This document shows positions 9,652 through 63,581 of a DNA stretch of 64,000 nt, in pieces. Source of the DNA: Candidatus Cloacimonadota bacterium (GTDB lineage Bacteria; Cloacimonadota; Cloacimonadia; Cloacimonadales; WRIO01); assembly GCA_029553545.1 (NCBI GenBank), contig JAKPKU010000170.1, forward strand, positions 4,621-68,620, read 5' to 3'. The notes beneath the pieces are model-generated. The model was not told the DNA's origin. It saw nothing but the letters and a program-made list of their open reading frames with translations, and searched no databases. The position numbers and the translations under genes were made by a program. The stretch's first letter is position 1. Each line of letters starts with the position of its first letter.

Positions 9652-10320
9652 TCATTCAAGCAAATCTATCTCTACAGGCTCACTTTCTTCTTTATTATCT
9701 ATTTTATTGTCATTATCTTTCATAAAATCAAGAGACTTTTTGCTCTCTAAAGGCGTTTTGCTCAGTGATACAAACTTCACATTTTGTGATGAAACACGCA
9801 TACCCAGCGAGTATAAGAGCGATCCTTTCATCAACTTTGCCAGGCTATTAAACTGTTTGAAAATACTCATAATAAACTCAATGCTCATATCCTTAATCAG
9901 CGTCCCATAGCGCTTTTGAGCACGATATACAAAATATATAAACATACTAAATGCAGAGACGCCCTGAGTCCGCTTTTGCCTGGTATTTATCTTATAAATC
10001 TTCGCATAATCGGCAAATAAAGACTTTATCGGCAAGTCCATACCTTGCCACAATGCACATAAATAGGGCTGATTATTTTTGATAGCGATATTTTGCGGCA
10101 AAATAGCCCTCTTCACGGGCTTACGTAGGATCACCACATTATTATTGGCATAATACGCTAAGATACTCTCGCCGATCCTCTTCGGAAACTTATGGTCTCC
10201 CGTCAAATAAACTCTCAATTTCCCTCCCTTTCTTCTGATAAAACACTTTTTTTCTACTCTAATTCCCTTGACATTCCCCTTGCTATCTTGGAGAATGAAC
10301 GGAAAACTAAAGGACATCAA
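9652..10320 (-). CDS. Hypothetical basic protein; gene status and start uncertain
   Basis: 222-aa ORF with no recognisable family. It has a TTG/ATG start without a Shine-Dalgarno site, unlike its neighbours. Its first ~25 codons overlap copy C of dispersed repeat X. Confidence 0.35.
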   Translation of the reverse strand: MMSFSFPFILQDSKGNVKGIRVEKKCFIRRKGGKLRVYLTGDHKFPKRIGESILAYYANNNVVILRKPVKRAILPQNIAIKNNQPYLCALWQGMDLPIKSLFADYAKIYKINTRQKRTQGVSAFSMFIYFVYRAQKRYGTLIKDMSIEFIMSIFKQFNSLAKLMKGSLLYSLGMRVSSQNVKFVSLSKTPLESKKSLDFMKDNDNKIDNKEESEPVEIDLLE

Positions 10321-10340
10321 ATAGTAATGTAAAGAGATTA
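10262..10340 (+). repeat. Dispersed repeat X, copy C (partial and degenerate)
   Basis: It shares the core cccttgacattccccttgctatcttggagaatgaa and the distal aatgtaaagagatt with the copies at 63133-63207 and 43994-44065 (the latter in reverse orientation). Confidence 0.7.
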
Positions 10341-10402
10341 ATAGCTATCTTTTAAAAGATACTTTTAATATAATAATCAGATTTTTATTCTTTGCCAATA
10401 AA

Positions 10403-10576
10403 TTAGTTACCTGTTTTTTTTACGCTTCTGATTATTACATCATCATTTGGATATTTACTCTTTGCGATTTCAATTGCTGAACTGTCTGATTCTGCCTGCG
10501 TAGATATGATTCTAACTGTCCCGCCGCCTGTCGCTCCCTTTTTTCTTTGAAGTATTGTCACTGAATACTTTGCCAT
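10403..10576 (-). CDS. Small hypothetical protein, 57 aa, absent from the ORF track (below the size cut-off)
   Basis: ATG at 10576 preceded by the RBS gggaga and a consensus-like promoter. It translates as MAKYSVTILQRKKGATGGGTVRIISTQAESDSSAIEIAKSKYPNDDVIIRSVKKTGN. Confidence 0.5.
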   Translation of the reverse strand: MAKYSVTILQRKKGATGGGTVRIISTQAESDSSAIEIAKSKYPNDDVIIRSVKKTGN

Positions 10577-10608
10577 TGTCTTATCTCCCTTCTTTCAATA
10601 CTATCTCA

Positions 10609-10637
10609 ATACTAAAAGAAATTTTTTATCTTGTCAA
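10609..10637 (-). promoter_or_regulatory. Sigma70-like promoter for the 57-aa ORF
   Basis: On the minus strand: TTGACA, 17 nt, TAGTAT, about 30 nt upstream of the ATG. Confidence 0.55.
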
Positions 10638-10673
10638 GAAAAATATTGTTTGCTACTGCATTATCTTTTGCCT

Positions 10674-10760
10674 TTAGCTTCGCTGCGGGTATCGTTTAAA
10701 AAAATCGGTAGATTTTTTTAAACGTACCCACAACTATCCCTAGTTGTGCAGCGAAGCTAA
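10674..10760. repeat. REP-like composite palindrome, left copy
   Basis: The outer stem agcttcgctgc/gcagcgaagct encloses two inner hairpins: gggta.cgtttaaaaaaatc/gatttttttaaacgtaccc and acaacta/tagttgt. Confidence 0.85.
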
Positions 10761-10825
10761 TTTCCAGTTTTGAATTCCTATTCAGTGCAACCAGCGATAG
10801 TTGTTCATATGCTTGCTGTACAGTA

Positions 10826-11476
10826 TTACAGAAAAATATCATCTAAGTTCATCACATAAACGCCTGGCCAGTCATTATAATCTTCGACTAAGCCAGCCTT
10901 TACAGGATTATTTAGGATATAGTTCAATTGATTAAAATAATCCTTTTCATTTCTTATTACATGATCATAGTATTCTTCTTGCCAAAAGGGTTGCACGTAA
11001 TGTGGGAGCTCCGTAAATGCTCCAGAGGTATGTCTTTTGAATGAGAAGATAATTGTCGATAACGGATGATAGGACTTCTCATTAAGTTTTAATGGCTTAA
11101 GCAATATATGAACATGATTCGACATGACACAAAAGGCTATTAAACGATATTTATCTCCATCCATAAAGAATAAAGTCTCTTTAATAGTATTCAAATAAAT
11201 GGGTTCAAGTAGGTTAATTGGGTTTTTATGTCTCGCCAAAAAATTGTCATATTTCTCGAAGTTTTCTCTATGTTTCTTCCTCTTTAACTCATTAACTTCA
11301 TTTTCTTCTTCATCTAATTCTTTGGTATCGTTATACTGTTGTAGCAATTTAATTGATTCAATTATATGGCGGGGCAGGGTAAAGTTCAATCTGATCGTAA
11401 GAGCCAAAACAAAGCCCTCACGCTGCATATGCGGAAGCTTCCTCTTAAAATAATTTTTAAACTTAAATTTACTCAT
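10826..11476 (-). CDS. REP-associated tyrosine transposase (RAYT, IS200/IS605 TnpA-like, HUH Y1 family)
   Basis: HUH motif in VMSNHVHILLKP. C-terminal Tyr helix in DYFNQLNYILNNPVKAGLV. 216 aa, which is longer than a classical IS200 TnpA, as is typical of RAYTs. Confidence 0.85.
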   Translation of the reverse strand: MSKFKFKNYFKRKLPHMQREGFVLALTIRLNFTLPRHIIESIKLLQQYNDTKELDEEENEVNELKRKKHRENFEKYDNFLARHKNPINLLEPIYLNTIKETLFFMDGDKYRLIAFCVMSNHVHILLKPLKLNEKSYHPLSTIIFSFKRHTSGAFTELPHYVQPFWQEEYYDHVIRNEKDYFNQLNYILNNPVKAGLVEDYNDWPGVYVMNLDDIFL

Positions 11477-11511
11477 TTAAAACACATTCCTCTTTTTTTT
11501 TACTCAACGAT

Positions 11512-11540
11512 TTATTAACATGTTTAATGTTATTTGTCAA
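11512..11540 (-). promoter_or_regulatory. Sigma70-like promoter of the RAYT gene
   Basis: On the minus strand: TTGACA, 17 nt, TAATAA, followed by the RBS agagga. Confidence 0.5.
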
Positions 11541-11620
11541 GATAATATTTTTGCTTTTTATCAAATATGTTAGCCTAAATATGCTGATAACTAAGCTGAG
11601 TTGATGGCGGTAGAGCAATT

Positions 11621-11676
11621 TGCTTCGCTGCACAACTAGGGGAAGACAGAACTGAGAGCTGAGAACTGAGAGCTGA
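11621..11676 (+). repeat. Partial REP copy followed by a 2 x 14-nt tandem repeat
   Basis: tgcttcgctgcacaactagggg matches the first ~22 nt of the right REP. It is followed by gaactgagagctga twice, and gaactgagagct recurs at 57217. Confidence 0.7.
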
Positions 11677-11779
11677 GTTGGCTGGTAATTTCATTTCATG
11701 AAATTGTTAGGTTGCTTTTGAGCGCGGCCGAGACGGGCGCACCCAATTCTGTCAATAAGCGATAGATTTTTTTCTGAAA

Positions 11780-11866
11780 TTAGCTTCGCTGCACAACTAA
11801 GGATAGTTGTGGGTACGTTTAAAAAAATCTGCCGATTTTTTTAAACAATACCCGCAGCGAAGCAAA
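11780..11866. repeat. REP-like composite palindrome, right copy (inverted relative to the left copy)
   Basis: ttagcttcgctgcacaactaaggatagttgtgggtacgtttaaaaaaatctgccgatttttttaaacaatacccgcagcgaagc is the reverse complement of 10674-10760, apart from about 4 substitutions. Confidence 0.85.
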
Positions 11867-11913
11867 AGCTCCCTCCAATTTCACTGCGTGAAATTGAAGA
11901 TTGACTCTATTTA

Positions 11914-12083
11914 CTTGTTCGTAGTTGTCCATCGCACGTATACAAATAAGGCTATTTGTATTTACAAAGCCAGATTATTGGGAATGAGAGATTTCTTTTT
12001 GGCTTGTTCGTAGTTATCCATCGCACGTATACAAATAAGGCTATTTGTATTTACAAAGCCAGATTATCGTGAATGAGAGATTA
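11914..12083 (+). repeat. Direct tandem duplication, 2 x 89 bp
   Basis: cttgttcgtagtt(g/a)tccatcgcacgtatacaaataaggctatttgtatttacaaagccagattat.. occurs at 11914 and again at 12003. Each copy contains the hairpin tacaaata/tatttgta. Confidence 0.85.
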
Positions 12084-12116
12084 TTAAAAAGAAGTCGCAA
12101 CATCCTTTAAAAAAAC

Positions 12117-12239
12117 CTTTCACAAATGTGAAAGCTCCTAACCCGCAGCGAAGCGAGGACCCTAACCTTCGACGAAGTCGAAGTACCTAACCTTTACGAA
12201 GTAAAGTACCTAACCCGCAGCGAAGCGAGGACCAAAAGG
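12117..12239 (+). repeat. Mini-array of short GAA-loop hairpins punctuated by CCTAACC
   Basis: CCTAACC occurs 4 times (12137, 12161, 12186, 12209). The copies are separated by 16-18-nt units: cgcagcgaagcgagga (twice), ttcgacgaagtcgaagta and tttacgaagtaaagta. The hairpin ctttcaca/tgtgaaag precedes the array. Confidence 0.75.
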
Positions 12240-12569
12240 TGTGTTGTTCAAAAAAAAGTTGATTGTCTTGGTCTGTGTGCCATGGAACTGTTTGCCAAAG
12301 ACTTTAAACCTAAGTGTGTTGCAGTGTGTTGTTAAAAAAAAAGTTGATTGTCTTGTTCTGTGTGCCATGGAACCGTTTGCCAAAGACTTTAAACCTAAGT
12401 GTGTTGCAGTGTGTTGTAGTGTGTTGCAGTGTGTTGTTAAAAAAAAAGTTGATTGTCTTGACCTGTGTGCCATGGAACTGTTTGCCAAAGACTTTAAACC
12501 TAAGTGTGTTGCAGTGTGTTGTTAAAAAAAAAGTTGATTGTCTTGACCTGTGTGCCATGGAACTGTTTG
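12238..12569 (+). repeat. Tandem array of about 85-bp units, 4 copies (76, 85, 105 and ~66 nt)
   Basis: The unit is gtgtgttgcagtgtgttgttaaaaaaaaagttgattgtcttgNNctgtgtgccatggaacYgtttgccaaagactttaaacctaa. Unit starts are at 12238, 12314, 12399 and 12504. The third unit carries a 20-nt internal duplication. Confidence 0.9.
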
Positions 12570-12707
12570 TGTTTTGTTATAGTGTGTTACCGTGAGTTGT
12601 AAAATAAAAAATCACCTCTAAACCCGCTTGTAATAGTCATCTGCTGATTTAGGTGAAAATAGTTTTCAAAAAACACCATTTTTTAAGCCCTATATATATA
12701 GAGGGTG
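12570..12707 (+). repeat. Dispersed repeat Y, copy 1
   Basis: The core cacctctaaacccgcttgtaatagtcatctgctgatttaggtgaaaatagttttcaaaaaacaccattttttaagccctatatatatagaggg recurs at 63339-63430. Its 5' half recurs at 57300-57337. Confidence 0.8.
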
Positions 12708-12814
12708 TTGTTCCGAGATGAGAATATTTCTGAGCATGTTCATCATTATATAAAAAGTGTTGACAAAAAATGATGATTTAATATTTTAAACACAATACTT
12801 GAATAAGGGATAAT

Positions 12815-13633
12815 ATGAAAAAGAGTTTTTTTATAGTAATATTGGCAGTATGGATTTCATATTCTTTTGCAGACATGATTATCACACGCCAGGAGGGTAA
12901 TAATTTGTCGCAGGAGATCTATGCTAAAGGAAGGTTTGCAGAGGTAATAAACAACCGTGTAGTATCAGTTTGGGATTTTAGAAATATGCAGCTGACCTTA
13001 GTTAATTATGATATCAAGTCTTATACGCAGATTAGTTTTGATAACTTAAAAGCTGAGATTGCCAGACAGACAGATGCAGAGATACAGATTGAATTAGAAA
13101 ATCTCGATGATGAGACTAAAAGATTGATGATTGAGTCCACTAATACGCTATTTGCAGGACTTATACCACGTCTTGACATTATTAGAGACACTGTTATGAT
13201 AGCAAATTATCCAAGCCTTGAATACAAAGTATTGAACGACACTTTATTAATTCAAAGAATATGGATTTCTAAAAAAGCGAGAGAAGATATTGCAAAGGAA
13301 ATACCGATAGAATCAATGAAGCATGTGGAAAGCATTTTTAAAGAAAAAAGATCAAAACACCTTGGTGCATTGGGCTTGCATGTTGATGGAATTACGCAAT
13401 TGGTAGAGGCTGTCGAGCAGAATGGATATATCATGAAACGCTTTGATTATGGGATAAGAACCAAATCTAATCCCAGCATTTATAAGACAATTGAATCGAT
13501 TCAAAATGAGATCACAGATATAAGTCATATGACAGTTGATGAGGCAATCTTCCTGCCACCGAGGAATTTTAAGAGTTTAAAATACAATGACTATCAGATT
13601 AGATTGATGAAATATTTAGAATCACTTGAATAG
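12815..13633 (+). CDS. Hypothetical secreted protein
   Basis: Signal peptide (FFIVILAVWISYSFA). 272 aa. No family recognised. Confidence 0.6.
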   Translation: MKKSFFIVILAVWISYSFADMIITRQEGNNLSQEIYAKGRFAEVINNRVVSVWDFRNMQLTLVNYDIKSYTQISFDNLKAEIARQTDAEIQIELENLDDETKRLMIESTNTLFAGLIPRLDIIRDTVMIANYPSLEYKVLNDTLLIQRIWISKKAREDIAKEIPIESMKHVESIFKEKRSKHLGALGLHVDGITQLVEAVEQNGYIMKRFDYGIRTKSNPSIYKTIESIQNEITDISHMTVDEAIFLPPRNFKSLKYNDYQIRLMKYLESLE

Positions 13634-43889: not shown

Positions 43890-44140
43890 TACGAGGCTTT
43901 TGCATAATCTCATAATAAAAATTTGCTCAATCATCATAACAACAAAATATAATAGAGGCTACTCTTTTCTCTTTCAAAAAAATCATAATAAATCTCCTTT
44001 TCACTCCCTTTAGATTCCTATAAGATTACCTTTCATTCTCCAAGATAGCAAGGGGAATGCAAGGGTAGCCCAATAGATAATTTACTGTTAAATAGTCAAA
44101 TACAACAAAGAGAAAAAAAATCAAAGAAAAGAGAGAAAAA
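43890..44140 (-). repeat. Dispersed repeat X, copy A (reverse orientation relative to copy B)
   Basis: The reverse complement aligns with 63050-63310 over about 250 nt. The alignment includes the long hairpin core (43994-44065) and gagattatgcaaaagcctc. Confidence 0.75.
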
Positions 44141-57216: not shown

Positions 57217-57337
57217 GAACTGAGAGCTTATTTGGTCCTCGCTGCGCAGCGGGTGAGGATCAAAATCGTGCGTTGCAGTGGTTTGTTAAATAATAAATCG
57301 CATCTAAACCCGCTCGTAGTAGTCATCTGCTGATTTA
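57217..57337 (+). repeat. Repeat cluster: gaactgagagct motif, REP-like GC hairpin and the 5' half of repeat Y (copy 2)
   Basis: ggtcctcgctgcgcagcgggtgaggatc is a hairpin related to the acccgcagcgaagcgaggacc units at 12.1-12.2 kb. It is followed by gtgcgttgcagtggtttgttaaataataaatcgcatctaaacccgctcgtagtagtcatctgctgattt. Confidence 0.7.
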
Positions 57338-57424: not shown

Positions 57425-59614
57425 TTACTTTAGTATCATCATTTTCCCTGAGATAATCTCCTGATCAGAATCAGCTCTGTAAAGGTATAGACCACTTGAT
57501 ACTGCCTTACCATTCATATCTTTCTTATTCCAGACAAATTCACTACTACTATCTTTTTTTACCTGATTGCTTATTTTATTAACCAACTGCCCTTTTATAT
57601 TATAGATAGAGATGTTCTTGACTTTGGTATTGTTTTTAATTAAAAATCTTACCTGGTCTGACCTGCATGGATTAGGATAGACAGAGATGGTTGATGGTTT
57701 TACAAGTGTCTGATCATCAGTTGATACAGTATAATCAAAACTGTAGAGATTGACTCCAGAAGAAGCTATACTAACTATTCTTTGTTGATCAAAATATATA
57801 TAGTACATAGCATTACGATTTTCATTGATCTCTCCGACCTGACTAAACATTCCATTTCCAATATAGTAAACTAATGCTGTCTCAGAGTCAAAATCTTTAA
57901 CTACTGATGTTTGGTTATATATTGTTGAAACACTCAATAAATCTTTTGTCATTTGATCAAGAAATGTGATAGAATGATCAGTGTAGTTATATAATTTATT
58001 TATATATTCTGAAATTGTTATAAAAATCTCATCATTCACGAAATATGCTCCATATTCAATACCACTAATTATCGGTGTTTCGTACATAATAGTAACAGGA
58101 TCATGCTTATCTCTAAACTGAAGTTTATTATTGTTTTTAAATATCAATAAGTTATTATGCGAATAAGATTGGTTTGAAATGTGTTGACTTTGTATTGTAT
58201 ATAAGAATTCTAACTCCGTATTATTAAAAGAATAAATATCCGTTGAGAAAATACCATTATTAACTTTGTTAAATAGAATTAAACTATCAATAATAGAGAA
58301 ATCATAATATGAGACATTGAGTTGATTTGAACAAACAAGAGATAAATTTTCTGAGCTAATATTGTAAATGTCAAAAAAGTTAGTGTTATCTATTCTATAC
58401 TTTAAGTATAAAGAGTTGTTTTTAATATCAAAATCGACAATATTAAGATCATTTTTGACATTCTCTTTACTCAGGATGATTTGATTATTATCAAACACAG
58501 AATGAAAAATAAATTGATTATTTGCAACATCATATACTCCAATATAGCCATTTTTATACATAGCTCCTTGTGCATTTAATCCGTACTTAGATAATAATTC
58601 AGTATTGTATTCAATATTATAGGTATTTATGCTCATATAAGCATTTCTGTATAAATAAGGATAGTGAAGGCATAAGCTTCCTGATTGAACATGATATTGC
58701 CCGTCTTCGGTATATAATAATGATTGGTCTGAAATATTGTATACATCAAATCTGTTTTTATGATCGACGGTATAAATATTTCCATCATGTATAAGTGCAT
58801 CTGTATAGTAATCATTACTTTGGGATGGGTTATATTTATGAAAAACAGTGGCAATGGAATCCAAATCACTTATGTTGAGCACCGTAATTTCGTGATGCCC
58901 TAATAAAAAAAGATTATCCCCTTCAATTTTCATATTAAAAAGAACACCTCCATTGCCAGTACTCCCAATAATTTCTTCATGAATATAATTATTATTATCA
59001 AACTGATCTAAATCTTCTATCATATGATAGAATCTTAATGAAAAAAATTCAGTGTTGTTTATAATAAAACTCCCATAACAAACTAATAGTGAATCGCTTA
59101 TAGTAATCAAACCAAATAGATTGTCAATATAACCATCGAAAGATAAATTGTGTTTGTTTATTTTTAATGTCCTCTCATGTTCATTGTCTGCCAAAAGAAT
59201 ATAATGATTAGATATTGATGGTCTAAAATTATTGTTTTTAGAGATATTAGTGTCGATCTTTGCAATAAATTGCATTGGTGACACACTGATATTAAATACA
59301 TTAATAAGATAAGAATCTTCATCTTGGTCAAAGAAATACAAGGAATCCCCTGAAACAAATGCAGTATTAATACCAATACCTTTTTTCTCATAAAACGAAA
59401 TTCTATCCAATGCACCATTAGTGTTTATCTCAAATTCTTCGATCATACCTTCACTTTCAACATACAATCTGTTTTGATACTTATTGATTGATCCTGAGTA
59501 GTTTGAATAGTCCAGTACCCTGCTATGATAATTAACATTACTGATGTTGGCTATATGTTGTGCATTTAACAAAGTAAAGACACCTAAGATGATTATAAAT
59601 ATTATTTTCTTCAT
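57425..59614 (-). CDS. T9SS-sorted large repeat protein, paralogue 1 (possible beta-propeller)
   Basis: Signal peptide and recurring strand-like repeats. The C-terminal tail is VYPNPCRSD..NISIYNIKGQLV..WNKKDMNGKAVSSGLYLYR. Start at 59614 (MKKIIF) behind ggagg. Confidence 0.75.
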   Translation of the reverse strand: MKKIIFIIILGVFTLLNAQHIANISNVNYHSRVLDYSNYSGSINKYQNRLYVESEGMIEEFEINTNGALDRISFYEKKGIGINTAFVSGDSLYFFDQDEDSYLINVFNISVSPMQFIAKIDTNISKNNNFRPSISNHYILLADNEHERTLKINKHNLSFDGYIDNLFGLITISDSLLVCYGSFIINNTEFFSLRFYHMIEDLDQFDNNNYIHEEIIGSTGNGGVLFNMKIEGDNLFLLGHHEITVLNISDLDSIATVFHKYNPSQSNDYYTDALIHDGNIYTVDHKNRFDVYNISDQSLLYTEDGQYHVQSGSLCLHYPYLYRNAYMSINTYNIEYNTELLSKYGLNAQGAMYKNGYIGVYDVANNQFIFHSVFDNNQIILSKENVKNDLNIVDFDIKNNSLYLKYRIDNTNFFDIYNISSENLSLVCSNQLNVSYYDFSIIDSLILFNKVNNGIFSTDIYSFNNTELEFLYTIQSQHISNQSYSHNNLLIFKNNNKLQFRDKHDPVTIMYETPIISGIEYGAYFVNDEIFITISEYINKLYNYTDHSITFLDQMTKDLLSVSTIYNQTSVVKDFDSETALVYYIGNGMFSQVGEINENRNAMYYIYFDQQRIVSIASSGVNLYSFDYTVSTDDQTLVKPSTISVYPNPCRSDQVRFLIKNNTKVKNISIYNIKGQLVNKISNQVKKDSSSEFVWNKKDMNGKAVSSGLYLYRADSDQEIISGKMMILK

Positions 59615-59656
59615 GATTACCTCCAATAAATGTGATTAGTAAAAGATGGCGGTCAA

Positions 59657-59969: not shown

Positions 59970-62168
59970 TTACTTTAGTATCATCATTTTCCCTGAGATA
60001 ATCTCCTGATCAGAATCAGCCCTGTAAAGGTATAGACCACTTGATACTGCCTTACCGTTCATATCTTTTTTATCCCAGATAAACTCAATGCCATTCCCTT
60101 GTTTTGCTTCATTACCTAATTTATTGACTAATTGTCCTTTTATGTTATAGACAGAGATGTTTTTGACTTTGGTATTGTTAGTAACTGAAAATTTTACAAG
60201 GTCTGACCTGCATGGATTAGGATAGACAGAGATGGTTGATGGTTTTACAAGTGTCTGATCATCAGTTGATACAGTATAATCAAAACTGTAGAGATTGATT
60301 CCGGAAGAAGAACTGCTTATCATTTTGTTAAGATCCGGGTAGTAATAATCACTTGATGCTACTCTGGATTCAAACACACCAATTTCATTTAATGCCCCGT
60401 TTCCTACGTAATAAATATTTCGTGACGAGGAGTTATAATTGTATATACTTAGTATTTCATTATACAATGTCAATAGGGCATCTGAGTATTGATAGTTAGC
60501 AGAAAAAGTGGGGGTTAGATTGTTATTATTTATATTAAAAATCTTTAGGTATCTATATCGGTCACTCAAAGCTATATAATCCTGATTGATAGGAATCACA
60601 CTATGAGTCCCATAATTATTTGGAACCTGAACAGGGTAGGAAAAAAGAATATTTTCAGGGGCATTGATATCTCTGAAGCATAAATACCCATTATTATAAG
60701 TATAAATATATTCATTACTTAAGTAACCAGAGCTTAATTGTTGAGATCCATTGAATGTGCAGTAATATTCGATATCGTTTCCTGTTATCCGATAAACCCT
60801 GGTAATGAAATTCTGCCCTGTATAACAATCAAAATAAATATAATCACCAATAATATCAAACCATGAGGGAGGGTATGTGTCAAATGTAATGGTATTAATT
60901 AATTGTAACTGATTTTCTGAAAAGCCATAAATCTCCAAAAATGTCTGCCCGTTAATTTTTAGTCTGACATATAATTTCCCTTCATAAACATCAATGTTTA
61001 AAAATCTTTCAACTCCTTCTTTATAAATAGAATAATGCATGTTATCGAAAATGGAGTAAAAGTTTAGGTATTTATTGATCGGATCGTATGTCATTGCATA
61101 ATTATCCTTATAAGCAGAATATAAGTAATGAATCCCATACTTTCTTACGCATTGGATGTTATCTTCTATTTGATATTGAGCCAAAAAATGATCATTATTA
61201 CTGTATAAGTAAGGATAATTAAGACAGAATGTCCCATACTGTATATTGCCTGTATTTTGTTCCTGATAAACAAGAGTAGAATTTTGAATATCATAGACTT
61301 TTATCTGAGAATTTATATCTGCTGTAAAAAGCTTATTATTAATCAGTAATGCATCGGTATAGTAAAACCAGTAAGATGGAGTAGAATTATGTAGTGTATA
61401 AATTGTATGCAGATTTGATATATTATGAATATCAAATACCTTGATGTAATCAAAACCTAAAACATATAGCAAATTATCTTTATGTTTTAAATAGACTATA
61501 TCAAGCTCTTCGTTATCTGATAATACTTCCTCGTGAAAGAAACCATTCGGATAATTTATATTCTCCTGATTCAAATTGAAAAAACGAAGACTATAGATTT
61601 CGTTATTCCCGTTATTTATACTACCATATAAAATCAATACAGAATCCACAACCGTAAAGATGCCATAAATATTTTGATGTTCCCCTTCGTAGTCTAATGT
61701 AAATCTGTTTAGTTTTCTGATTTTTTCATGTTCATTGTCTGACAATAAAATATAATGCTTGTATATGGCTTTAGTCATTGAATACCATCTGTTGATTTCT
61801 GTATCAATAGTGCCAACAAATCTCATGGGGCTGACAGAAATATCTATGACTGACATTAAGTAACTATTGTCATCCCTCTCAAAGTAATAAAGGGAATCAC
61901 CTTCAATAAATGAAGTAACTCCAGTTAATTGACCCTTTTCCAGAAAACTGATTCTCTCCAGATTACCGTCAGACATTATATTATATTCTTCAATCTTTCC
62001 TTTATTTTCAACATATAAATGGTTGTTATGCATGTTAACGGCACCATTGTATGAATCATAATCTACGATATGCCGATCAAGACGGATATTGCTTATTTGT
62101 GTAATTTCTGCAGATAATGAGATAATAAATAGAAATATCCAAGCGACACCTATTATGATTTGTTTCAT
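59970..62168 (-). CDS. T9SS-sorted large repeat protein, paralogue 2
   Basis: 732 aa and colinear with paralogue 1. The middle is divergent, and the last ~115 codons are nearly identical at the nucleotide level. RBS aaggag. Confidence 0.75.
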   Translation of the reverse strand: MKQIIIGVAWIFLFIISLSAEITQISNIRLDRHIVDYDSYNGAVNMHNNHLYVENKGKIEEYNIMSDGNLERISFLEKGQLTGVTSFIEGDSLYYFERDDNSYLMSVIDISVSPMRFVGTIDTEINRWYSMTKAIYKHYILLSDNEHEKIRKLNRFTLDYEGEHQNIYGIFTVVDSVLILYGSINNGNNEIYSLRFFNLNQENINYPNGFFHEEVLSDNEELDIVYLKHKDNLLYVLGFDYIKVFDIHNISNLHTIYTLHNSTPSYWFYYTDALLINNKLFTADINSQIKVYDIQNSTLVYQEQNTGNIQYGTFCLNYPYLYSNNDHFLAQYQIEDNIQCVRKYGIHYLYSAYKDNYAMTYDPINKYLNFYSIFDNMHYSIYKEGVERFLNIDVYEGKLYVRLKINGQTFLEIYGFSENQLQLINTITFDTYPPSWFDIIGDYIYFDCYTGQNFITRVYRITGNDIEYYCTFNGSQQLSSGYLSNEYIYTYNNGYLCFRDINAPENILFSYPVQVPNNYGTHSVIPINQDYIALSDRYRYLKIFNINNNNLTPTFSANYQYSDALLTLYNEILSIYNYNSSSRNIYYVGNGALNEIGVFESRVASSDYYYPDLNKMISSSSSGINLYSFDYTVSTDDQTLVKPSTISVYPNPCRSDLVKFSVTNNTKVKNISVYNIKGQLVNKLGNEAKQGNGIEFIWDKKDMNGKAVSSGLYLYRADSDQEIISGKMMILK

Positions 62169-63049: not shown

Positions 63050-63310
63050 ATATCAGGTCTGTTTTCCCTTCTTTTTATTCATTATCTATTCAATCTTGTA
63101 TATGACTATTTTTCAGATATATCCCTTTGTGACTCCCCTTACATTCCCCTTGCTATCTTGGAGAATCAAAGAAATTCTTATAGGAACCTAAAGGGAATGT
63201 AAAGGAGATTTATTTTGAATATTTAAGGTATAGAAAAAATATGTAAACTTTTAGTAATGAAATGATGATTGTTAAATTTGTAATTTGAAGATTATGCAAC
63301 AGCCTCAAGG
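63050..63310 (+). repeat. Dispersed repeat X, copy B (most complete)
   Basis: It contains a long imperfect hairpin at 63133-63207: ctcc-cc-ttacattccc...gggaatgtaa-a-ggag, with inner stems ctat/atag and agaat/attct. It aligns with the copy at 43890-44140 in reverse. Confidence 0.75.
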
Positions 63311-63430
63311 TGTGTTGTCTTATGTTGTGTTAAAAAAACCACCTCCAAACCCGCTTGTAGTAGGCGTCTGCTAATTTGGTTGAAAATAGTTTTCAAAAAA
63401 CTCCATTTTGTAAGCCCTATATATAGAGGA
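63306..63430 (+). repeat. Dispersed repeat Y, copy 3
   Basis: gtgtgttgtcttatgttgtgttaaaaaaaccacctccaaacccgcttgtagtaggcgtctgctaatttggttgaaaatagttttcaaaaaactccattttgtaagccctatatatagagga. It directly abuts repeat X copy B. Confidence 0.8.
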
Positions 63431-63581
63431 CGATGTTTTTATTTAAGATTCTGCTTTATTCTTTACAAGTTGTTTTGAATTACTGTGTAACAGTCTCATC
63501 TCGTGTTGTTAAATAAATCTAAAGAAAAAAAATGTTGACTTAAAAGAGTTGTTTGTAAAAAATGATTAAGAAGGATGGTTT

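Follow-up and report, generated by a model that had tools for sequence, protein, structure and literature searches.

Repetitive extragenic palindromic (REP) sequences and the REP-associated tyrosine transposases (RAYTs, or TnpA_REP) have been studied by experiment almost only in gamma-proteobacteria, with RAYTs of Groups 2 and 3, and one school limits populations of REPINs (REP doublets forming hairpins) to those groups. REPINs were reported only in RAYT Groups 2 and 3 (Bertels et al.). The Escherichia coli REPtron is a single-copy HUH/Y1 gene with inverted cognate palindromes on both sides, and the palindromes (REP types Y, Z1 and Z2) make up bacterial interspersed mosaic elements (BIMEs). 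Here we analysed a stretch of 64,000 nucleotides, hereafter the window, from Candidatus Cloacimonadota bacterium (assembly GCA_029553545.1, contig JAKPKU010000170.1, positions 4,621 to 68,620 of the forward strand). In the window, a gene encoding a RAYT-like protein of 216 aa lies between two inverted copies of a three-stem palindromic element. RAYTs with dispersed palindromes are well known; what is new here is an unusually complex repeat, not a new category. We found no paper linking REP or RAYT with a three-way junction or with Cloacimonadota. The features of the locus are as follows.

10826..11476, minus strand: RAYT (TnpA_REP) gene, 216 aa (open reading frame call, profile, structure and homologue matches)
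10672..10764 (core 10677-10757), plus strand: left copy of the element (repeat search, fold)
10677-10686/10748-10757 (full arms 10674-10686/10748-10760): outer stem of the left copy (repeat search)
10687-10729 (inner arms 10693-10706/10711-10724): hairpin B of the left copy
10730-10747: hairpin A of the left copy, loop TCCC
11776..11868 (core 11783-11863), minus strand: right copy of the element, inverted relative to the left (repeat search, fold)
11783-11792/11854-11863 (full arms 11780-11792/11854-11866): outer stem of the right copy (repeat search)
11793-11810: hairpin A of the right copy
11811-11853 (inner arms 11817-11829/11834-11846): hairpin B of the right copy

The 216-aa protein is almost certainly a RAYT, a domesticated IS200-like transposase. 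The open reading frame (ORF) at 10826-11476 on the minus strand contains both NHVHIL and NYILNNPVKAGLV, so that the HUH/Y1 protein described between the two elements in the initial annotation is indeed there. The RAYT residues are the HUH motif N120-H121-V-H123, W165-Q166, D171-H172, R175 and the catalytic Y186 within YILNNP. The tyrosine motif is of class 2 (Y---NP, here YILNNPVKAGLV); class-2 TnpA_Y1 proteins have Y---NP and IS200 has Y---Q (PMC6006769). Across 43 homologues, the invariant columns are H16, N120-H121-x-H123, W165, D171, R175, Y186 and N190-P191. In the profile searches, NCBIfam NF047646 (REP_Tyr_transpos, the REP-associated tyrosine transposase equivalog) gave a marginal pass of 80.5 bits at a cut-off of 80, and it matched all 43 aligned members of the clade (best E = 6.4e-28). 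The Pfam Y1_Tnp model scored 21.9 bits (E = 2e-4), just below its gathering score of 23. No match to the IS200 model of NCBIfam was found at E ≤ 0.001; weak matches to transpos_IS200 occurred in 13 of the 43 homologues, and the query was not among them. In addition, the sole real sequence match in a phmmer search of PDB was E. coli TnpA_REP (4ER8, E = 6e-8). For the AlphaFold model (pLDDT 84.8), 4er8_A was again the top hit, here by Foldseek (E = 1.5e-8), and the IS200/IS605 TnpA structures ranked after it, all with E ≥ 1.7e-3, about five orders of magnitude worse. Public records already name the enzyme: the exact protein is listed as 'transposase' in Candidatus Cloacimonadota metagenome-assembled genomes (MAGs) and as 'REP element-mobilizing transposase RayT' in IMG. 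The element is not annotated there.

In the phmmer alignment, W165, Q166, D171, H172 and R175 correspond to W94, Q95, E100, H101 and R104 of E. coli TnpA_REP, the residues that recognise the GTAG foot (Quentin et al. 2018, PMC6006769). The contact residues W, Q, E/D, H and R are thus kept in the best solved-structure match by both sequence and fold, and the replacement of E100 by D is shared with subclasses 2.5 and 2.7. However, the identity with the E. coli enzyme over the fold alignment is 17%, and the proteins differ by a helical segment of about 60 aa between strand 1 and the HUH strand. Subclass 2.7 is described by [ND]HVH, WQ, YI[LR][NQ]NP and a median length of 213 aa, and subclass 2.4, which is RAYT Group 4 of Bertels et al. 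2017, by NH[IFV]H, WQ and YIxNNP (Quentin et al. 2018, Table 1, PMC6006769). By its signature NHVH/WQ/YILNNP and its length, the protein would fit subclass 2.7 best and be compatible with 2.4, an assignment made at the level of motifs and not from a tree. Both subclasses have flanking long or 'double-foot' REPs and a low gene copy number (PMC6006769), and the 16-mers flanking Group 4 RAYTs are of low abundance, with about 14 occurrences (Bertels et al. 2017). However, subclasses 2.7 and 2.4 have REPs that are single long hairpins with GT[AG]G feet, and the same Table 1 lists no Cloacimonadota for them (PMC6006769).

The RAYT is a single-copy gene fixed at one chromosomal locus, as judged from metagenome assemblies and not from a closed genome. 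The exact protein was found on at least 21 contigs, and the order RAYT, 57-aa ORF, 221/188-aa ORF, htpG was the same in all 10 contigs listed. Every contig that reaches upstream of the 57-aa gene has the RAYT. Furthermore, only 2 of 38 element-bearing metagenome contigs encode the RAYT, and both come from the htpG-side locus. No tnpB-sized ORF adjoins the RAYT among the ORFs at the locus, and no second copy of the element-RAYT-element unit was seen in any genome or metagenome scan. An ordinary multi-copy IS200 TnpA, which the initial annotation had kept as an alternative, thus disagrees with the NF047646 pass, the missing IS200 match, the nearest structure, the Y---NP motif and the one syntenic locus. 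We also considered the 57-aa gene as a conserved partner of the RAYT and rejected it: the 57-aa ORF beside the RAYT of the relative L063 is dissimilar and overlaps the repeat array there.

The RAYT is bracketed by palindromic repeats, which is the REPtron arrangement. The repeat search gave inverted arms at 10672-10764 and 11776-11868, 93 nt long, 96% complementary with 4 mismatches and 1011 nt apart; the initial annotation had estimated about the same number of mismatches in a slightly shorter repeat. Their distance to the gene is 62 nt on the side of the stop codon and 300 nt on that of the start codon. The element has a core of 81 nt and measures 87-93 nt with its conserved edges. Its outer stem of 10-13 nt (GCTTCGCTGC/GCAGCGAAGC) encloses hairpin A (ACAACTA-AGGA/AGGG-TAGTTGT) and hairpin B, which is long and A/T-rich (GGGTA-C-GTTTAAAAAAATC-nnnn-GATTTTTTTAAAC-(nn)-TACCC). 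The internal arms are present in both copies, and the nested palindrome proposed from the sequence was borne out by folding: as single-stranded DNA (ssDNA), all four strands folded into a three-way junction in which the outer stem has 10 bp, hairpin A has 7 bp and a loop of 4 nt, and hairpin B has 18-19 bp. The free energies were -31.4 to -37.1 kcal/mol, and those of shuffles were about -9 (z-scores -8.7 to -13.2; 0 of 200 shuffles as stable). In addition, the outer-stem 10-mer GCTTCGCTGC occurs 7 times in the 64 kb, where 0.08 are expected, and all 7 lie inside 10677-12226.

Covariation was also examined. Only two pairs were altered on both sides, slid controls gave scores comparable to the true alignment, and paired cells made up 96.8% in the element copies and 96.3% in shuffles. 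One compensated subfamily was seen (GGGTA/TACCC changed to GGTTA/TAACC). Since the copies are nearly identical, covariation gives the junction weak support, and the case for the structure is built on palindromy and folding energy.

On the strand where hairpin A has the TCCT loop (the TCCT strand), the element reads as a CGTAC(CC) foot, the 7-8-bp hairpin ACAACTA-TCCT-TAGTTGT and the tail GCAGCGAAGC. The second outer arm GCTTCGCTGC pairs with this tail and closes the junction. We take the foot and hairpin A as a putative REP-proper, a reading made from sequence. In the left copy, the CGTACCC foot followed by hairpin A with its TCCY loop is read on the plus strand. In the right copy, the foot and the TCCT strand are on the minus strand, the sense strand of the RAYT. 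GTAC is palindromic and lies between the two hairpins; thus it is the 5′ foot of A on one strand and of B on the other. Hairpin A without hairpin B was found in at least five independent contexts, always with a CGTA[CG] foot and in one variant with CGTAG (L030). The same contigs carry related hairpins with the canonical GTAG foot (CGTAGGT-ACAATTA-(G/T)CCT-TAATTGT-ACC). The hairpin B apex, AAAAATC-nnnn-GATTTTT, also occurs as a module in other places, where a TTAGGTA foot precedes it.

A REPIN in the sense of Bertels and Rainey in 2011 is reportedly made of two inverted copies of the same REP with a short spacer between them. Hairpins A and B are unrelated in sequence and length, and only the outer arms of 10-13 nt are inverted copies. 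The element is not a strict REPIN because its two halves are not copies of each other. Like the REPINs of Pseudomonas, Neisseria and enterobacteria (Groups 2 and 3), it is non-autonomous, about 80-100 nt long, extragenic, dispersed and of terminal inverted symmetry, and it is tied to a single-copy, vertically held RAYT that is itself flanked by copies. However, its population is much smaller than theirs and has no evident master sequence. In our reading, the element is closest in logic to a minimal E. coli BIME, that is, two different REP types in opposite orientation, with a 10-bp closing stem added. E. coli REPs differ in being bulged single hairpins with a GTAG foot, not a closed three-way junction of two unrelated hairpins with GTAC, and in numbering hundreds of copies, not tens, in another phylum.

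Solo copies of the element are dispersed beyond the locus. We scanned one genome per species with a 20-mer of the element, which returned two contigs, and metagenomes with a 21-mer of hairpin A, which returned 38 contigs (this pattern fixes hairpin A). The two genome hits are solo copies in GTDB representative MAGs with no RAYT nearby, one from Cloacimonadales and one binned as Salinivirgaceae. Altogether, 72 full-length matches reduced to 40 distinct flank contexts and to 32 clusters at ≥75% flank identity, so that the element does exist elsewhere, in about 40 contexts without the gene, or some 25-40 intergenic sites in this lineage. The absence of copies beyond the locus, which the initial annotation had named as a refutation, is thus not what is seen. 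The cores are 85-99% identical in pairs (median 94%). In assembly Ga0208195, 17 full and 3 partial copies are spread over 11 contigs (8 with full copies only, 1 with full and partial, 2 with partial only). Assembly UPXM01 has 6 copies on 5 contigs with matching coverage of 9.5-11.8x, as a single genome would give. The 40 sites are all extragenic, with no overlap with an ORF of ≥120 aa. No target-site duplication of ≥3 nt was found at any of 39 sites with boundary offsets of 0-4. A single fixed gene, a dispersed extragenic repeat and the lack of duplications form the RAYT/REP signature, which argues against an insertion sequence (IS), a composite transposon or a MITE (miniature inverted-repeat transposable element) of the DDE type.

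The ends of the element were compared as well. Three independent truncated copies stop exactly after GGGTACG, and the 3′ boundary on the TCCT strand is C^T at 23 of 39 sites and C^A at 12 of 39. Characterised TnpA_REP enzymes cleave at the dinucleotides CT and CA (PMC8266576). These boundaries and the GGGTACG ends are suggestive as candidate cut sites.

Two observations were made on individual solo copies. The copy binned as Salinivirgaceae (Bacteroidales) is on L022, a 4.2-kb contig (DAOOBP010000158.1) that also carries the CCTAACC and GGTCCTCGCTTCGCTGCGGG modules as in Cloacimonadota contigs, and L022 is probably a mis-binned Cloacimonadota contig. In L044 (3000-6900) and L045 (4700-8600), three tandem paralogous genes of about 270 aa, FGE-sulfatase-like, have one element copy between each, and L045 has, compared with L044, an extra inverted copy of a unit of about 200 nt of flank plus the element. 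This arrangement suggests element-associated duplication or recombination rather than simple transposition.

Relatives of the RAYT were also compared. Around P0002, a RAYT that is 50% identical, there are direct arrays of TACTTC-[GATAACTG-AGGA-CAGTTATC]-[AGCACG..CGTGCT]-[CGCAATTA-TCCT-TAATTGCG]-GAAGTA. Some of these units fold as four-way junctions, and both long hairpins have a GTGCT foot on the TCCT strand. We asked whether one genome could hold both RAYT systems and rejected this, for P0002-type hairpins occur in none of the element-bearing contigs; P0002 therefore comes from another organism. P0056 (35% identical, in a Cloacimonadota MAG) has a true REPIN of 57 nt with GTAG/GTAA feet, in 5 copies upstream and 2-3 downstream. 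The true REPIN of the relative in L063 measures 28+28 nt. Thus, within Cloacimonadota each RAYT examined has its own compound palindrome, and this is RAYT-REP co-variation as described for other phyla. No obvious flanking inverted repeats were seen at two more distant homologues, L061 and L062; the repeat association is therefore not universal in the wider protein family.

Taken together, the locus is probably a REPtron, that is, a single-copy, chromosomally fixed class-2 TnpA_REP RAYT with two inverted copies of its presumed cognate, non-autonomous element. By analogy with described systems, it is likely that the RAYT mobilises the element. As in TnpA_REP of E. coli, Stenotrophomonas maltophilia and Marinomonas and in IS200/IS605, the folded hairpin with its foot would be bound by the RAYT on transiently single-stranded DNA. 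With Tyr186 and the metal bound by HUH, the enzyme would then cut at a short distance from the hairpin and rejoin the strand elsewhere. In this way the element could reach extragenic sites with no target-site duplication, and the RAYT gene itself would stay put. Which strand and nucleotides would be cut, and how much of the junction would be recognised, we infer from the same analogy.

Several observations weigh against this reading. The pass of the protein in NF047646 has a margin of only 0.5 bit, and Pfam Y1_Tnp is below its gathering score. The foot of the element is GTAC and not the canonical GT[AG]G; GTAG is restricted to the one hairpin-A variant in L030 and to the ACAATTA hairpins. The covariation described above adds little to the junction. 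The evidence for mobilisation consists of adjacency and analogy, and the single-copy status and the counts per genome come from metagenome assemblies that possibly mix strains or sister species. No dispersed copy was found in the remaining 62 kb of the window, where a sensitive BLAST search gave only chance matches of 10-12 nt; the population is therefore small (tens, not hundreds). No master sequence appears to dominate, with 34 distinct cores among the 40 sites and none seen more than twice, in a set in which strains are mixed and hairpin A is fixed by the pattern. Furthermore, some copies arose by segmental or tandem duplication together with adjacent genes and not by transposition. No clean pair of filled and empty orthologous sites was found when joined flanks were compared with all examined loci, which gave only paralogous mosaics of 77-85% identity. 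The initial annotation had proposed a RAYT-REPIN system with a compound substrate. Its RAYT and its compound repeat stand; the strict REPIN does not, as the two halves are unrelated.

Within the REPtron reading, the RAYT might take either the whole junction or only part of it as its substrate. The chance that the RAYT recognises the junction as a whole, and not REP-proper, is even at the very best and perhaps a good deal lower. A tentative form of this idea is a 'hetero-REPIN', in which a RAYT of subclass-2.7/2.4 type would recognise and move the whole three-way junction, with two unrelated hairpins sharing the palindromic GTAC foot, which either strand can supply, and clamped by the closing stem. 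If this is true, the Cloacimonadota RAYTs would have evolved branched ssDNA substrates, three-way here and four-way around P0002, and would form BIME-like mosaics as well, arrays of mini-hairpins with GNA loops among them. REPIN-type replicators would then extend past the Group 2/3 proteobacterial systems. The alternative is that the RAYT acts on REP-proper alone, the roughly 40 nt of CGTAC foot, hairpin A and tail, and that hairpin B and the second arm hitch-hike, so that the three-stem shape has no role in recognition. This is a possible but doubtful view. All characterised TnpA_REP enzymes recognise one hairpin with a tetranucleotide (PMC8266576), and the view agrees with the at least five contexts of REP-proper without hairpin B and with the separate hairpin B apex behind TTAGGTA. 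However, 34 of 43 non-redundant hairpin-A contexts are full three-stem elements, the boundaries lie at the outer stem in about 40 sites, both copies that bracket the RAYT are complete, and the relatives have multi-hairpin units too.

A further explanation places the element on the side of the host, as a structural or regulatory motif (such as a site for a nucleoid protein or gyrase, a terminator or mRNA stabiliser, or a hotspot of recombination) spread by recombination or duplication, with the RAYT adjacent by chance or in a non-mobilising host role. The element nearly always stands in mosaics with many conserved hairpin modules unconnected to the RAYT, some copies were duplicated along with genes, and both mosaic content and neighbour genes switch between near-identical strains exactly at the clusters. 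Nevertheless, we regard this explanation as unlikely. The single RAYT has one complete copy within 70 nt and a second, inverted to the first, within 310 nt, for which our own rough estimate of chance, at tens of copies per genome, is about 1e-4. Copies with unrelated flanks share sharp common boundaries. No T-run follows the outer stem. A terminator scan of 10300-12900 called a single terminator-like site, the TTTCAC hairpin at 12117-12134, and none at the element. Rfam gave no match, either for the whole window at the gathering score or for 10570-12820 at E ≤ 1. Promoter-like sites were not above shuffle expectation.

It is very improbable that the 1.2-kb element-RAYT-element unit is an autonomous IS200-like IS or a composite transposon, with the solo elements as its MITE-like derivatives. 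The Y1/HUH transposase fold, the inverted terminal structures and the frequent contig breaks beside the locus could be read in this way, and IS200/IS605 TnpA also shares the hairpin-plus-guide logic of recognition and the lack of target-site duplications. However, the gene is at one locus only, with constant neighbours, its motif is Y---NP and not the Y---Q of IS200, and no NCBIfam IS200 model matches it. IS200/IS605 has two different subterminal hairpins as its ends; here one element forms both ends in inverted orientation, and its solo copies far outnumber the gene. There is no tnpB, and no scan found a second 1.2-kb unit; the flanks are thus not the left and right ends of an IS200/IS605 element, against which the initial annotation had warned. 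Finally, a MITE derived from a DDE transposon and unconnected to the RAYT is scarcely credible: perfect terminal inverted repeats of 10-13 bp and a length of about 85 nt would suit it, but 39 sites show no target-site duplication (k ≥ 3, offsets 0-4), no DDE transposase with matching ends was seen in any examined locus, and the internal architecture obeys REP grammar.

With the REPtron as the preferred reading, the locus is a compact and well-delimited case, in an uncultured AT-rich phylum, of a RAYT outside Groups 2 and 3 with a small dispersed population of a complex repeat. The two other Cloacimonadota RAYTs with their own compound repeats add to its usefulness. It offers defined substrates for how TnpA_REP reads foot, stem and higher-order ssDNA, namely the full junction, REP-proper, hairpin B, and GTAC versus GTAG. 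In addition, the repeat clusters coincide with assembly breaks and with junctions in the gene content of strains, which is relevant to assembling and comparing Cloacimonadota genomes from anaerobic digesters.

Across contigs, the element stands nearly always within mosaics of other conserved modules, as E. coli BIMEs are extragenic mosaics that mix hairpin types in opposite orientation with other short motifs. The recurring modules are AATTTCAC-nnn-GTGAAATT hairpins, AAAAATCAATTGATTTTT palindromes, AGAACTGAGAGCTG repeats, 89-nt units with ACAAATA-AGGC-TATTTGT, 85/105-nt GTGTGTTG repeats and CCTAACC tandem units of about 24 nt. In the window, all module types are packed into 11600-12715, as follows.

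11617..11641, plus strand: truncated element copy with the 5′ outer arm and the first half of hairpin A; the break is in the loop, where a AGAACTGAGAGCTG module adjoins (repeat search; like the junction in L044)
11642..11775, no strand: mosaic modules in the stretch from the RAYT promoter region to the right element (the same modules adjoin solo elements in other contigs)
11648-11675: AGAACTGAGAGCTG, twice
11687-11705: AATTTCAnnnnnTGAAATT hairpin
11727: GCCGAGACGGGCG module
11754-11773: remnant like AAAAATC..GATTTTT
11869..12715, no strand: BIME-like mosaic cluster distal to the right element (repeat search)
11877-11895: AATTTCACtgcGTGAAATT hairpin
11914-12082: two 89-nt units (tandem x1.9, 96% matches) with ACAAATAaggcTATTTGT hairpins, ACAAATA-AGGC-TATTTGT
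12117-12134: TTTCACaaatGTGAAA hairpin
12137-12233: four units of about 24 nt, CCTAACC plus hairpin
12239-12570: 85/105-nt repeats with GTGTGTTG(C/T) decamers, core CCATGGAAC..GTTTGCCAAAG
12579-12715: conserved module of about 135 nt

Two of the four 24-nt units are exact copies of the 3′ end of the element (ACCCGCAGCGAAGC) followed by GAGGACC, and GAGGACC also lies directly 3′ of several solo copies. Fragments of the element had been listed at four positions: those at 11621 (25 nt, 96%), 12144 and 12216 (both exact 14-mers) hold, and that at 57234 is a 28-nt match of 89% to the GAGGACC module at 12209-12236 and not to the element. The 89-nt and 85/105-nt tandem repeats recur in other contigs. 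Strains that are 98.5-100% identical to the window over htpG and the RAYT, up to 11895-12332, diverge beyond it in mosaic content and in the next genes (compared stretches: window 11895-12815, L001 5480-6540, L009 1100-1950). Past the junction, L001 has an SNF2/PLD helicase, L009 has Cas6b, and the window has a 272-aa protein and EF-G. Many contigs end within the mosaic cluster. As strains diverge inside the clusters, these therefore mark rearrangement or assembly junctions.

The units of about 24 nt (window 12137-12233; L009, L021, L022, L030 and L045) have a constant CCTAACC, GGTTAGGTA on the other strand, and a hairpin of 13-17 nt. The loops read GAA, GCA or GGA, all G-N-A triloops with a closing C:G pair, and from unit to unit the stems vary in both arms. 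DNA mini-hairpins of very high stability, d(GCGAAGC) among them, have this loop motif. At least 80 non-redundant hairpins in the examined loci have AGGTA immediately 5′ of the stem, and the units could represent a second family of short REPs, with GGTAC as the foot.

The non-coding module of about 135 nt (..CACCTCTAAACCCGCTTGTAGTAGTCATCTGCTGATTTAGGTGAAAATAGTTTTCAAAAAAC..CCCTATATATATAGAGGG) is present in the window at 12579-12715, 57265-57337 and 63306-63440, and also after mosaics in L050, L057 and L058. It has internal hairpins and no Rfam match, and it is possibly a small RNA or a regulatory leader.

Two repeats in the window concern other genes. Two adjacent paralogous genes of about 733 aa, at 57425-59626 and 59970-62168 on the minus strand, have 3′ ends that are 89% identical, and segments upstream of them are repeated too. 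The repeats are 57410-57709/59955-60254, 59657-59806/62219-62368 and 59840-59951/62772-62883, and the pair looks like a recent tandem duplication. Furthermore, a segment of 63-163 nt at 10264-10334, which covers the start and upstream region of a 222-aa ORF (9652-10320, minus strand), recurs at 43977-44139 and 63062-63224 with 75-78% identity. This segment looks like a 5′ end or leader that is common to the members of a paralogous gene family, for which Pfam gave no match.

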